This document shows, one piece after another, positions 2,573 through 46,128 of a DNA stretch of 64,000 nucleotides. How positions within the stretch are numbered: the first letter of the stretch is position 1; each line of letters begins with the position of its first letter. Source of the DNA: Escherichia coli. Lineage in GTDB: Bacteria; Pseudomonadota; Gammaproteobacteria; Enterobacterales; Enterobacteriaceae. Location of the stretch: the NCBI RefSeq assembly GCF_003334785.1, contig NZ_QOWV01000006.1; one strand, 5' to 3'. A model generated the notes under the pieces. That model was not told the origin of the DNA, did no database searches, and worked only from the letters and a program-made list of their open reading frames with translations. Made by a program: the position numbers and the translations under genes.

Positions 2573-3511
2573 TTAGCGGCTCAACTGGCTAATCAGGGCA
2601 GGGACGACTTTGTAGATATCGCCCACCAGACCGTAGTCGGCATAGTTGAAGATTGGCGCATTTTTATCTTTATTGATGGCGACAATCACTTTTGCGCCGT
2701 TGCCGCCAACCATATGCTGGATCTGCCCGGAGATCCCCAGCGTCAGGTAGAGATCGGATTTCAGCAACACGCCGGAGACACCGATATAACGTTCACGCTC
2801 CATCCAGTTCTCGCCTTCGGCAATTGGACGTGAACAGCCGACTTCAGCATTCAGCACCGCCGCCAGTTCGTGGACCATTTTTAGGTCATCCTGCGCCGCC
2901 AGTCCACGACCGACGCCAACCACACGTTTTGCTTTGCTCAGGTCCACGCTGCTTGCGGCTTTCGCACGGCGTTCGCGACAGAGAATTTCATGACGCGGAG
3001 CAACATAAGGTACCGTTTCTGTCGGGCACTGATGAGAGGTATCACTGGTGCACGGTTCCTGAACACCGGGTGCAAGGGTAATGATCGCCAGCGGGCTGTT
3101 GATCTTTTCCTGAGCGAACGCTAACCCGCCATACATCCGGTGTTCGGCGCAAATGTGACCATCGACAATATCCACCGCCGTGGCATCGTTCACCAGCGCC
3201 GCATTCAGTTGCACACTTAACCGTGCTGCCAGCGCTTTACCACGTTTCGTCGCGGCCAACAGCAACATAGCGGGGTGTTTATCTTTCAGCAGGGCAGCAA
3301 TGCTTTCGGCGTAATTTTCAGTGCGTTGCAGCGCGTCGTTTTGCGCAAGAACATAAAGACATTTTGGACCATAAGGCATAACTGCCTGCGCCTGGTCGGT
3401 ATTTTGTACAATGGCATACACCTGTTGGCCCCATTGCTGAGCGCCGCCAAACAGTTCAGCATAACGTTCAGGATTATCGCTAAAGACCCAGACGCTGTTT
3501 AATTGACTCAT
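2573..3511 (-). CDS. ydiR: Electron transfer flavoprotein alpha subunit (FixB-like)
   Basis: ORF track 312 aa; ETF-alpha-like sequence; ATG at 3511..3509. Confidence 0.9.
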   Translation of the reverse strand: MSQLNSVWVFSDNPERYAELFGGAQQWGQQVYAIVQNTDQAQAVMPYGPKCLYVLAQNDALQRTENYAESIAALLKDKHPAMLLLAATKRGKALAARLSVQLNAALVNDATAVDIVDGHICAEHRMYGGLAFAQEKINSPLAIITLAPGVQEPCTSDTSHQCPTETVPYVAPRHEILCRERRAKAASSVDLSKAKRVVGVGRGLAAQDDLKMVHELAAVLNAEVGCSRPIAEGENWMERERYIGVSGVLLKSDLYLTLGISGQIQHMVGGNGAKVIVAINKDKNAPIFNYADYGLVGDIYKVVPALISQLSR

Positions 3512-3530
3512 CGTTTCTTCTCCGTAGGCT

Positions 3531-4295
3531 TCAGTTCAGGGCTTTCTTCAGATGTTCCGCCAGCTCGGCAATGGCCTCCGGCGAATCGTTATCGATAATG
3601 ATGTGCTTACGTTCTGTTTGCGGCGGTACGCGAATGCCGACCAGTTCAGCAAGTGGCGCGCTCTGGCTCCAGTCAATATCACTTGCCTGCCACTGATTTA
3701 CCGGTTTTTTACCCGCGCCGAGAATGGCTTTCATCGAAGGAATGCGTGGCACGTTAATATCGGAGGTGACGCAGAGCACGGCTGGAACAGAGAGTTCAAT
3801 AACTTCAACATCATCTTCAAGCGTGCGTTCAATCACCAGTGTATTGCCCTGACGCTGAATAGCACTCACTGCATTAATCACCGGAAGTTGCAGAATTTCT
3901 CCGACCAGCAAGCCAACCTGCTGGGCATAAAGGTCGCCGGAACCTTCACCAAAGATCAGTAAATCGAAGCCGATCTTTTCAATTGCTGCCGCCAGCGCTT
4001 TTGCGGTATCGAGAGGCAGTGCATGTTCAAGTTGCGCATCCTGCACCAAATACAGGCTGTGCGGCCCGCGGGATAGCACGTCTTTGCGCACTTTCGAGTT
4101 CTGCAACAATGAGCCGCCAACGGTCAGCGCGGCTATCTCATCGTCATCTGTTGCGAGCTGGCTTGCAGCTTCAATGGCATTGAGATCGAACTGGCTGATT
4201 TTGGCGTCGGCATTGTCGAAATTCAGGGTGTATTCTGGAGTGACAACAATGTCCTGTTCTTCAGGCACCAGCTTAAAGCAGGTTATTATTTTCAT
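3531..4295 (-). CDS. ydiQ: Electron transfer flavoprotein beta subunit (FixA-like)
   Basis: ORF track entry 3531..4394 trimmed to the internal ATG at 4295..4293 (MKIITCFKLV...), giving the 254-aa length I recall; the upstream extension is a GTG/TTG artefact. Confidence 0.85.
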   Translation of the reverse strand: MKIITCFKLVPEEQDIVVTPEYTLNFDNADAKISQFDLNAIEAASQLATDDDEIAALTVGGSLLQNSKVRKDVLSRGPHSLYLVQDAQLEHALPLDTAKALAAAIEKIGFDLLIFGEGSGDLYAQQVGLLVGEILQLPVINAVSAIQRQGNTLVIERTLEDDVEVIELSVPAVLCVTSDINVPRIPSMKAILGAGKKPVNQWQASDIDWSQSAPLAELVGIRVPPQTERKHIIIDNDSPEAIAELAEHLKKALN

Positions 4296-4610
4296 GATTT
4301 CTCCTGTGAGTCGCATACGGAACCATCTCCGATGGAAGGTAAAAATGGCCTGAAAATAGTGTGCGATAGCGGTGCGGGGTTTTCGACGGAGCAAGCTGTT
4401 TTCCTTGCCAACAATCTTGCAAAAAAAATGCGATCGCTAAAACAAAAGTGCAATTTGCGGCAATATAGTTATTCCATGACCGTACAATCTTGCATTCAGT
4501 GTAAATAATCTTGTTTAGCTCTCGCTAAACGCGGTTGTATAACCGCAATACACGCCGTATTTTATCCGGCATATATTGTTTTTGCTTGCTCATGGAATAG
4601 GGAGGTTGTC

Positions 4611-13297: not shown

Positions 13298-13434
13298 CGT
13301 GTAATGGCTGCATGAAATAAACAATAAAATATAAATAACATTATCAGCCTGCTGACGGCTTGAAGAGAGTCACAGTATCTTGTGCAACATTATTGGAAAG
13401 AGTGAGGGGCGAGGTAGCGAAGCGGAAAAATGTT

Positions 13435-13540
13435 AAAAAAAAGCCCATCGTGGGAGATGGGCAAAGACTACACACAGCAATTCGTTGTTTCACTCAGGGG
13501 ATTTCCATGCTTATAAATCAATATGTTGATTTATAACCGT
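13435..13540 (-). ncRNA. rprA: RprA small regulatory RNA (Hfq-dependent activator of rpoS translation)
   Basis: Minus-strand sequence ACGGTTATAAATCAACATATTGATTTATAAGCATGGAAATCCCCTGAGTGAAACAACGAATTGCTGTGTGTAGTCTTTGCCCATCTCCCACGATGGGC followed by a T-run; matches my recollection of E. coli RprA, including the terminal GC hairpin (CCCATCTCCCACGATGGG). Confidence 0.9.
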
Positions 13541-18690: not shown

Positions 18691-18789
18691 CGTTGTCACC
18701 AGAAAAGTGTGACGCATATTGCTTTTGGTCATTATCTGCACAGTAAACGGTGGTATACTGTGCAGGTCTTGTCTAAAAGCGAGGATGCT

Positions 18790-18978
18790 ATGTCTACTCA
18801 ACTTGATCCCACCCAGCTGGCCATTGAATTTTTACGCCGTGACCAGAGCAATCTTTCACCTGCCCAATATCTCAAACGTCTGAAACAACTAGAACTTGAA
18901 TTTGCTGACCTGCTTACTCTCTCTTCTGCTGAATTAAAAGAAGAAATCTACTTTGCCTGGCGTCTGGGCGTGCATTGA
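18790..18978 (+). CDS. ydiH: Small protein of unknown function
   Basis: ORF track 89 aa trimmed to ATG 18790 (MSTQLDPTQLAIEF...), 62 aa as I recall for YdiH. Confidence 0.7.
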   Translation: MSTQLDPTQLAIEFLRRDQSNLSPAQYLKRLKQLELEFADLLTLSSAELKEEIYFAWRLGVH

Positions 18979-19131
18979 TCCTGACTTAATGCCGCAAGTT
19001 CGCCAAATCGACCTGGATTAACCTCCGTCCAGGTTCGATGACCTTCTTAATACTGCTTATCTACCGCCTGATATTGTTCAAAAATAATACTAATCGCAGT
19101 TTGTGTTAAAACGGCGGGTTAGCTTTATGAG

Positions 19132-19245
19132 ATTATTCTTATCGCCCCTTCAAGAGCTAAGCCACTGAGAGTGCCGGAGATAAGCGCCGGATGGGGTAGA
19201 AACCCTTAAGCCTGTGTCGCACAGACTTAAGGGTTTTCTTATTTC
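19132..19245 (+). ncRNA. rydB: Candidate RydB sRNA locus with rho-independent terminator hairpin (exact ends uncertain)
   Basis: Intergenic ydiH-sufA position where rydB lies in E. coli; strong hairpin AACCCTTAAG...CTTAAGGGTT (19201..19235) followed by TTTCTTATTTCT on the + strand. The sequence itself was not matched from memory. Confidence 0.35.
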
Positions 19246-19465
19246 TGAACGCTGCACTTTTTTACCTATCTCTTAAATAGTCATTTTCAATACAACTTTT
19301 TCTTTTTCATCACAGCCTTAATGCTCCTTAGATAATAACCATTATCTAACAATGAGATACCTAATTCTTAGCGTGCCTGTTAACCCACACATCAGGGTCT
19401 ATGCTTATTAAAAGCAGGCAAAAAGCATGTTTTACGGTAAAGCCCCTGCGTTTGCTGGGTTGAAC

Positions 19466-19480
19466 TGATAATCATTATCA
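19466..19480. promoter_or_regulatory. Fur box in the suf operon promoter
   Basis: TGATAATCATTATCA about 46 nt upstream of the sufA ATG; close match to the GATAATGATAATCATTATC Fur consensus. Confidence 0.8.
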
Positions 19481-19525: not shown

Positions 19526-19894
19526 ATGGACATGCATTCAGGAACCTTTAACCCACAAGATTTCGCCTGGCAAGGCTTAACGCTGACACCCGCAGCGGCG
19601 ATACACATCCGTGAGCTGGTGGCAAAGCAGCCGGGTATGGTCGGCGTGCGCTTAGGCGTGAAGCAAACGGGCTGCGCGGGCTTTGGCTATGTGCTCGACA
19701 GTGTTAGCGAGCCGGACAAAGACGATCTGCTGTTTGAACACGACGGCGCGAAGCTGTTTGTCCCGCTGCAAGCGATGCCGTTTATTGATGGCACGGAAGT
19801 CGATTTCGTTCGTGAAGGACTTAATCAGATATTCAAATTTCACAACCCTAAAGCCCAGAATGAATGTGGCTGTGGCGAAAGCTTTGGGGTATAG
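19526..19894 (+). CDS. sufA: Fe-S cluster A-type carrier
   Basis: ORF track 122 aa; C-terminal CGCGESF motif. Confidence 0.93.
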
Positions 19895-36906: not shown

Positions 36907-37212
36907 TCAGGCGAGTTTTGCCTGATTGATTTGACTAAGTGGCTCATTGACATCGAAAACTTTGGCGACAACTTCCTCAACGCCGAGATTTTTCAGTCGG
37001 GCAGTATGTTTTTCCAGATAGGCAAGGGCGCTTTTTTCATCAGTGAAAAGGTAGATCCCACCGGCTTCGTGGTTCTTTTCACTTTCTGTCCATACCTTCC
37101 ACAGAAAACCAGGTTCCTGATTAATCGACTCAGCAAGTGGTTTAAGCTGCTCAGCCATTGCGTCGCCAAATGGGCCATTAAAAGCAAAATGAAGTTGTAA
37201 CAAAGTTGCCAT
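36907..37212 (-). CDS. ydhR: Small protein, putative monooxygenase-like
   Basis: ORF track 101 aa. Confidence 0.85.
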
Positions 37213-37319
37213 AGCGATTCTCCTTCTGATAACGCATACGAAGACAGTGTAAATCTTTTAACGTATTGGATACAGAGAAGAAACAGAGGGAAAAAGGAGA
37301 AGACCAGATTAAGAAAATC

Positions 37320-37396
37320 TGGTGCGTCCGAGTGGACTCGAACCACCGACCCCCACCATGTCAAGGTGGTGCTCTAACCAACTGAGCTACGGACGC
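37320..37396 (-). tRNA. valW: tRNA-Val (anticodon GAC)
   Basis: Reverse complement GCGTCCGTAGCTCAGTTGGTTAGAGCACCACCTTGACATGGTGGGGGTCGGTGGTTCGAGTCCACTCGGACGCACCA; anticodon loop CTTGACA; encoded CCA. Confidence 0.95.
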
Positions 37397-37400
37397 AGGA

Positions 37401-37477
37401 TGGTGCGTTCAATTGGACTCGAACCAACGACCCCCACCATGTCAAGGTGGTGCTCTAACCAACTGAGCTATGAACGC
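37401..37477 (-). tRNA. valV: tRNA-Val (anticodon GAC)
   Basis: Reverse complement GCGTTCATAGCTCAGTTGGTTAGAGCACCACCTTGACATGGTGGGGGTCGTTGGTTCGAGTCCAATTGAACGCACCA; a near-duplicate of valW with compensatory acceptor/T-stem changes. Confidence 0.95.
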
Positions 37478-46068: not shown

Positions 46069-46112
46069 TCCATTTCACTCCAGACCCTAACTTCAGCTCC
46101 TGCAAAATCGCA

Positions 46113-46128
46113 AGGTAAACGTTTGCCT
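46113..46128. promoter_or_regulatory. PurR operator in the purR 5' leader (autoregulation)
   Basis: Minus strand AGGCAAACGTTTACCT, 45-60 nt upstream of the purR ATG. Confidence 0.7.

Follow-up and report, generated by a model that had tools for sequence, protein, structure and literature searches.

The sequence analysed was a stretch of 64,000 nucleotides of Escherichia coli DNA (the window), in which the segment from 18.2 to 21.4 kb was found by ORF mapping to carry menI, ydiH, an intergenic region, sufA and sufB, all on the + strand. The features of the ydiH to sufA interval are as follows, with positions counted from the first base of the window.

18790 (ATG) to 18976-18978 (stop codon), + strand: ydiH
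19093-19112, + strand, forward orientation: putative class II soxbox/marbox-like element ATCGCAGTTTGTGTTAAAAC, centred at -41.5 from G19144
19128-19136, + strand: predicted extended -10 element TG-a-GATTAT (TG at 19128-19129, GATTAT at 19131-19136), based on its presence in 30/30 loci and on the Salmonella start
19144-19204, + strand: mature RydB sRNA, most likely 61 nt, based on RF00118, the E. coli Term-seq end and the Salmonella dRNA-seq start
19199-19237, + strand: putative terminator hairpin of the rydB precursor, with core stem CCCUUAAG...CUUAAGGG, one C/A mismatch and the loop UCG
19234-19246, + strand: U-tract TTTTCTTATTTCT, read from the sequence, the predicted 3' end of the primary transcript
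19526-19894, + strand: sufA

An earlier note, written from the letters of the sequence, had proposed that the structured part of this intergenic region (19132-19245) was likely to be the locus of the small RNA RydB, with the + strand given only tentatively, and had suggested an Rfam covariance-model search as a check. The proposal was borne out on each of these points. The Rfam rydB model (RF00118) matched inside the interval at 19144-19204 on the + strand, over its full length (model positions 1-61/61) and with a score of 81.6 bits (E 9.2e-18) against a gathering score of 50, while the same segment scored 89.6 bits under our own covariance model. Between 19100 and 19260 the window was 100% identical to E. 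coli K-12 MG1655, and the MG1655 RefSeq ncRNA rydB (b4430; 1764713-1764780(-)) translates to window positions 19132-19199 when the sufA ATG is used as the anchor, in the same orientation as the Rfam match. RydB (RF00118; b4430; synonyms tpe7 and IS082) and the window locus agree in sequence, position and strand, with no sequence difference, and the 571-nt intergenic query was found in 5422 of 5426 complete E. coli genomes. A small transcript is also documented, by a published E. coli Term-seq 3' end and a Salmonella dRNA-seq start, both of which are described below. The interval is the known E. coli K-12 sRNA gene rydB, lying on the + strand and transcribed codirectionally with ydiH and sufA; the gene was described in 2001 and is present in Rfam, RefSeq and EcoCyc, and the identification, correct but ordinary, matters little by itself.

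Two open reading frames at the locus were considered and rejected. A 13-codon frame from ATG 19127 begins upstream of the mapped start and is disrupted in Salmonella and Citrobacter, where an indel of 1 nt precedes GCCCC, and a 35-codon frame on the - strand (19150-19257) is broken by length changes in loop 1 and in the hairpin.

Other Rfam matches in the window were to RprA (13433-13540, - strand, 118.5 bits) and to STnc550 (46069-46459, + strand, 396.5 bits, full length). Two adjacent tRNA genes were also identified on the - strand, at 37323-37396 and 37404-37477; the 3' part of an HPnc0260 'antisense' match on the + strand, in 37196-37477, is merely the complement of one of these tRNAs.

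Orthologous loci were collected by anchoring on YdiH in a single genome of each species, which gave a total of 78 loci. By BLAST, rydB was present in 29 of the 78, from Escherichia, Citrobacter, Salmonella, Pseudenterobacter and one Leclercia MAG. The 49 further ydiH loci (from Enterobacter, Lelliottia, Kluyvera, Kosakonia, Trabulsiella and others) gave no rydB with our own covariance model, and in these sufA was outside the 2.5-kb flank, so that the negative applies to the flanks scanned and not to the whole genomes. Three blocks were found to be conserved together between stretches of variable DNA, namely an upstream block, the motif TG-n-GAnnnT and the RNA body, and promoter, body and hairpin travel together as a single unit across the 29 related loci.

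The body was aligned from 29 sequences (E. coli and 28 related loci). In this alignment 39 columns were invariant and 9 more were at least 90% conserved, and the only variable parts were the 3' tail and 4-5 nt of loop 1. The Rfam structure was compatible with the same 29 sequences, 99.2% of the cells being able to pair, and two independent compensatory changes to U:A were observed, one in Pseudenterobacter (pair 2-53) and one in Leclercia (pair 3-52); both belong to the outer CCCC/GGGG stem, and 0/500 shuffles reached this number. The two inner Rfam helices are invariant apart from one unpaired cell, and hence uninformative for covariation. The predicted fold of the 61-nt RNA was no more stable than the folds of shuffled sequences (z -0.01), and its minimum free energy structure matches the Rfam structure in the outer stem only. 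Mature RydB is closed by a 4-5 bp CCCC/GGGG helix, with a sequence that is almost invariant across genera.

Published Term-seq data for E. coli (Adams et al. 2021, PMC7815308, supplementary file 1) list one dominant rydB 3' end, 1764708(-), under three growth conditions, with read counts of 2.2e6 and 4.1e6. When checked on the MG1655 sequence, this position was found to be the second C of AAACCC, which corresponds to window position 19204 and to the last position of the Rfam model, and which falls four to six nt inside the 5' arm of the hairpin. The table lists no 3' end at the U-tract, but as the Term-seq pipeline retains only the strongest peak within 100 bp, a weaker end near 19240 would be hidden behind the peak at 19204 and its absence is uninformative. 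For the 5' end, a primary start of RydB was mapped by dRNA-seq in Salmonella SL1344 (Ramachandran et al. 2014, PMC3963941), with a -50 to +1 string that ends ...TATGAGATTATTCTTATG. The Salmonella +1 is the G that opens GCCCCTTC (GCCCC), and its counterparts are G19144 in E. coli and position 1 of the Rfam model. The convention of the string was checked on the rows for RybB and RydC against what we take to be the 5' ends of those RNAs. By analogy with this Salmonella start, and in keeping with the promoter geometry and the Rfam model, the E. coli start is most likely G19144 (or C19143).

Salmonella rydB has also been listed as 105 nt (Sittka et al. 2008, PMC2515195), a length that includes the terminator and which indicates a precursor of approximately 100 nt, running from 19144 to about 19243. 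From this precursor of about 95-100 nt, a mature RydB of 61 nt (19144-19204) is most likely cut. Compared with these experimentally supported ends, the RefSeq ends (19132-19199) are off by 12 nt at the 5' side and by 5 nt at the 3' side; the RefSeq 5' end sits within the -10 hexamer GATTAT, and neither the RefSeq nor the Rfam entry takes in the terminator hairpin. The misplaced RefSeq coordinates affect deletion constructs, overexpression constructs and target predictions. The interval given in the earlier note began at the RefSeq 5' end, 19132, but the likeliest 5' end is G19144, while its other limit, 19245, lies inside the T-rich run.

An inverted-repeat search identified the arms of the hairpin at 19200-19216 and 19220-19236, each of 17 nt, which are complementary at 16/17 positions (94%) and separated by a 3-nt loop. 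The hairpin reads AACCCTTAAG (19201-19210), C, CTGTG, TCG, CACAG, A and CTTAAGGGTT (to 19235), followed by TTCTTATTTCT, exactly the near-perfect hairpin and T-rich run that had been described before. When 19197-19246 was folded alone, a free energy of -22.0 kcal/mol was obtained, compared to -7.45 +/- 2.2 kcal/mol in 200 dinucleotide shuffles (z -6.61), and 0/200 shuffles were equally stable. The hairpin starts approximately 222 nt past the ydiH stop codon and ends approximately 288 nt short of the sufA ATG at 19526, where distances of about 220 and 280 nt had been estimated. With the tail UUUUCUUAUUUCU 3' of the stem-loop, the site combines the stable stem-loop and the U-rich tract of an intrinsic terminator. 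A consensus terminator scan made no call at 19199-19246, which we regard as a false negative, probably due to the single C/A mismatch within the stem. The hairpin was also considered as a REP element, a reading that was unsupported, as RepRanger labels rydB as an intrinsic terminator and not as REP.

A hairpin was found at the equivalent place in 30/30 loci, with free energies of -17 to -36 kcal/mol and, in most orthologues, with T-rich tails on its 3' side. The sequence of the lower part (ACCCTTAAG/CTTAAGGGT) is conserved in 25/30 loci and the apical stem varies among loci by compensatory substitutions, while in five loci (L013, L016, L017, L025 and L030) the hairpin is replaced by an unrelated, GC-rich one. 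The apical covariation and the five unrelated replacements indicate that the structure is needed as RNA on the + strand. Together these sequence features support the hairpin at 19199-19237 and its U-tract as the intrinsic terminator of rydB, and as a putative termination site. The hairpin had been put forward as a feature of the RydB locus, and it is retained as such in the role of a terminator 3' of the body; it is not the body of the sRNA itself, being absent from the dominant RNA that ends at 19204.

The explanation that best accounts for these data overall, and which we hold to be highly probable, is that rydB is an autonomous unit made up of a promoter, a body and a terminator, the product of which is a 3'-trimmed RNA of 61 nt. 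Transcription would start at G19144 or C19143, cross the 53-nt conserved body and stop at the hairpin and U-tract, and the primary transcript of approximately 100 nt would then lose the terminator hairpin and U-tail by 3' trimming. The route may involve endonucleolytic cleavage within the hairpin or close to it, after which 3'-to-5' trimming would stall 8 nt past the closing helix, the GGGG of which ends at 19196; 3' exonucleases generally halt a few nucleotides short of a stable helix. The terminator would also insulate the suf control region, which begins about 30 nt downstream, from rydB transcription.

The suf promoter region is presumably under the control of OxyR, IHF and Fur. It contains the palindrome CTATCTCTTAAATAG (19266-19280), conserved across genera, which we take to be an OxyR-type site, and GATAATCATTATC (about 19467-19479), which we take to be a Fur box. 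At 19328-19349, approximately 130 nt upstream of the promoter-proximal GATAATCATTATC, the sequence TTAGATAAT-aacc-ATTATCTAA forms a Fur-box-like element, a perfect inverted repeat of 9 bp, and it is overlapped by the sigma-70-like sequence ATCACA-16-GATAAT (19309-19336), the 'sufA constitutive promoter' of a genomic SELEX paper. On the other side of rydB, the ydiH leader is taken up by a long imperfect inverted repeat at 18721-18780 on the + strand, whose 28-nt arms are 79% complementary and enclose a 4-nt loop. A predicted promoter, TTGTCA-16-CATATT (18693-18720), precedes this repeat, and the Shine-Dalgarno sequence and start codon of ydiH (ATG at 18790) follow it; the repeat may form a structured 5' UTR.

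Among the alternatives, the one that survives best is that the functional form of RydB is the full transcript of about 100 nt, with its hairpin and U-tail, and that the 61-nt species is a stable remnant of decay. The annotation of Salmonella rydB as 105 nt and the weak Hfq enrichment reported with it (PMC2515195) would agree with this, and the retention of the lower hairpin sequence in 25/30 loci favours a full-length RNA. Nevertheless it is unlikely, since 19204 is among the strongest 3' ends in the cell under all three conditions, the invariant columns sit in the body and not in the hairpin, in five loci the whole hairpin sequence has been exchanged but the body is still invariant, and RydB is listed as Hfq-independent.

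The possibility had also been raised that the hairpin is the terminator of ydiH, in which case RydB could be a fragment processed from the ydiH 3' UTR. The hairpin is on the same strand as ydiH, and the hairpin that directly follows ydiH in E. coli (about 19007-19039) is without a U-tract, so that transcripts reading through from ydiH may reach 19237 and end at the rydB terminator, which would thereby have a secondary role as a backstop. As an account of the primary function of the hairpin, this was largely rejected, and with it an origin of RydB in the ydiH 3' UTR is quite improbable. In Salmonella the primary start mapped by dRNA-seq is at the first base of the RydB body, and a conserved extended -10 element lies at the right distance from that body. 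In 18 loci labelled Citrobacter or related, ydiH is approximately 2 kb upstream of rydB and its hairpin, with sufA roughly 300 nt downstream, and in the only locus of this type that was detailed (L008) the gap is filled, at 2757-4606, by a divergent Vmh-family MBL-fold hydrolase gene on the - strand and a LysR gene on the + strand. A two-gene gap of this size in most Citrobacter loci argues that the hairpin is not primarily a ydiH terminator. Other species have a canonical terminator of their own directly after ydiH, upstream of the rydB promoter, and Intestinirhabdus alba (L019, 2687-3258) has kept ydiH, a ydiH-sufA spacing of 573 nt and the suf boxes while the promoter-body-hairpin cassette is absent. 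The comparison of loci thus supports rydB as a self-contained transcription unit and not as the tail of ydiH.

Several further observations were made on these loci. The hydrolase of L008 is a secreted Vmh-family MBL-fold metallo-hydrolase, and the LysR-family gene ends approximately 85 nt before the rydB start. In Intestinirhabdus alba the place of the rydB cassette is taken by an unrelated GC-rich sequence with a terminator-like hairpin of its own. In two Salmonella loci rydB adjoins ydiH, and sufA is about 0.8 to 1.8 kb away. In one of these (L024, Salmonella enterica subsp. diarizonae) rydB and sufA are separated by a - strand gene (2977-4323) for a 448-aa GltP/DctA/SstT-type transporter, the stop codon of which is approximately 25 nt from the rydB hairpin, and this places the hairpin between convergent genes; in the other (L037, subsp. 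arizonae) the distance from rydB to sufA is approximately 0.8 kb.

That the palindrome acts as DNA, either as an operator for a dimeric suf regulator or by terminating transcription in both directions, including that of an antisense transcript, is the least probable alternative: a near-perfect 17-bp palindrome is indeed present, with the conserved OxyR-type palindrome about 30 bp further downstream, and the convergent transporter gene of Salmonella, ending about 25 nt from the hairpin, would favour a bidirectional terminator, but the compensatory apical changes and the five unrelated hairpins are the pattern of an RNA structure and not of a DNA recognition sequence, the stem is followed on the - strand by TTTCTACCCC or TTCCGGCCCC, both poor U-tracts, and E. 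coli has no - strand gene near the hairpin.

For rydB as an autonomous unit, the promoter can be described from its conserved blocks. In Salmonella SL1344 the hexamer GATTAT is at -12 to -7 and the TG at -15/-14 from the mapped start (PMC3963941 supplement). A frame of TG and GAnnnT (usually GAnnAT) was found in 30/30 loci, the spacer at 19113-19127 was not conserved, and no recognisable -35 hexamer was found at 16-18 bp from the rydB -10. Upstream of the spacer, ATCGCAGTTTGTGTTAAAAC agrees at 12/14 specified positions with the soxbox/marbox consensus AYNGCACNNWNNRYYAAAYN, as quoted in PMC2064960. The corresponding alignment position scored 11-13/14 as a soxbox in 30/30 rydB loci, although the orthologue sequences are mutually related and this agreement does not represent 30 independent observations. 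Box and -10 hexamer are separated by 18 bp in 29 loci and by 19 bp in the remaining one. Among the sequences that diverge most, GCA (RE1), W10 and RYYAAA (RE2) are fixed and the N positions 8, 9 and 11 vary, and in Salmonella RE1 is GCC instead of GCA. Soxbox matches with two or fewer mismatches were not enriched in the window (15 compared to 18.4 expected), which is the chance level for a degenerate consensus. The sequence TTTGTGT was also considered as a CRP site and rejected, being a single half-site whose partner half would lie in the non-conserved spacer.

Forward marbox sites of class II cluster near -41, at promoters without a -35 (PMC10268841, PMC12052159). The soxbox-like element of rydB would stand in for the -35 in such a class II layout, as at micF. 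When micF was scored as a control with the same scorer, the best box was ACAGCACTGAATGTCAAAAC, which matched at 13/14 positions in the forward orientation, with its centre at -41.5 and 18 bp from the -10. The two promoters thus share a forward soxbox (putative at rydB) at -41.5, an 18-bp gap, 7 nt to the +1 and the lack of a -35; their RE2 sequences are similar (GTGTTAAAAC against ATGTCAAAAC), and both RNAs belong to the SoxR-dependent paraquat response. They differ in that the putative rydB box is without the C at consensus position 7 and is combined with a TG-extended -10, and in that binding to the micF box is established.

RydB has been reported as one of three SoxR-dependent sRNAs in the paraquat response (Blanchard et al. 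2007, PMC2064960), and Table S1 of that study places rydB in the SoxR-dependent, paraquat-induced cluster 3 with marR and marB, an effect which is possibly indirect. In two marbox mapping studies, over the main text and the supplements covered, rydB, ydiH and sufA are not mentioned. On balance, direct activation of rydB by SoxS/MarA/Rob appears moderately likely. The micF-like promoter offers a concrete candidate binding site behind the reported SoxR-dependent induction of rydB, and it would tie a very abundant, function-poor sRNA to the oxidative-stress circuitry beside suf.

In Hfq co-immunoprecipitation, RydB was enriched 2.5-fold compared to 25-49-fold for classic Hfq sRNAs (PMC2515195), and RydB has been listed as Hfq-independent. 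No (ARN)x motif was found in RydB. The features of an Hfq-dependent base-pairing sRNA are therefore not seen in RydB, whose end at 19204 is without a hairpin and U-tail and whose enrichment is 2.5-fold; the loss of the terminator and U-tail fits the weak co-immunoprecipitation, the Hfq-independent listing and the absence of an (ARN)x motif.

In the literature covered, the only activity reported for RydB is a lowering of rpoS expression upon overproduction, and RydB has been stated in the literature to have no known targets. Pairing of RydB with the rpoS leader was predicted to be better than that of shuffled sequences both with duplexfold (-54.9 compared to -45.2 +/- 3.6 in shuffles; a fraction of 0.010 of 500 were as good) and with cofold (ddG -21.4 compared to -13.8 +/- 3.3; 6/200 shuffles were as good). 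In the MG1655 leader (L081) the predicted site spans -447 to -370 relative to the AUG; it falls within nlpD and is distant from the known sRNA site. It would be contacted mainly by two segments of RydB, GCGCCGGAUGGGGUAGA, which pairs with CCUAUCUCCACCUGGCGC, and the 5' CCCCUU, which pairs with GAGGGG. As the site is remote and the pairing is partly built on the non-conserved 3' tail, it is a weak lead only. Pairing of RydB with the sufA leader or with the ydiH mRNA was no better than that of shuffles and was rejected.

In the same Term-seq data, counts of 1.2e6 and 3.9e6 are given for csrB and of 7.5e6 and 8.6e6 for 4.5S RNA (PMC7815308). The 3'-end counts of RydB are comparable with those of csrB, within 2-4 fold of those of 4.5S RNA and approximately 5-9 times those of 6S RNA, and are far above those of rprA. 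An abundance of 2-4 million 3'-end reads is unexpectedly high for an sRNA with almost no known function.

Taken as a whole, the proposal that RydB is a second SoxS/MarA/Rob-activated sRNA besides MicF, made from a conserved class II promoter with an extended -10 that directly precedes the OxyR-controlled suf operon, that it is an unusually abundant, Hfq-independent and nearly invariant RNA of 61 nt which sheds its terminator, and that its database ends are wrong, is a tentative one, for which we would allow slightly less than an even chance. If it is true, the properties of RydB would be more in keeping with an RNA of the protein-binding or housekeeping type than with a classic seed-pairing sRNA. 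To our knowledge RydB has no known protein partner.

The rydB terminator resembles the intrinsic terminators of enterobacterial sRNAs in that a GC-containing stem-loop is followed immediately by a U-run, that an upstream A-tract pairs with this U-run, and that the structure is retained while the sequence turns over. In most Hfq-dependent sRNAs, however, the terminator is kept on the mature RNA and the U-tail is the handle for Hfq, whereas the dominant RydB species discards the terminator. RydB is much shorter than CsrB, 6S and 4.5S RNA and is without repeated motifs such as the GGA of CsrB, and what it shares with these abundant protein-binding RNAs is a likeness only, consisting of comparable Term-seq counts, Hfq-independence and the high conservation of both loops and stem.
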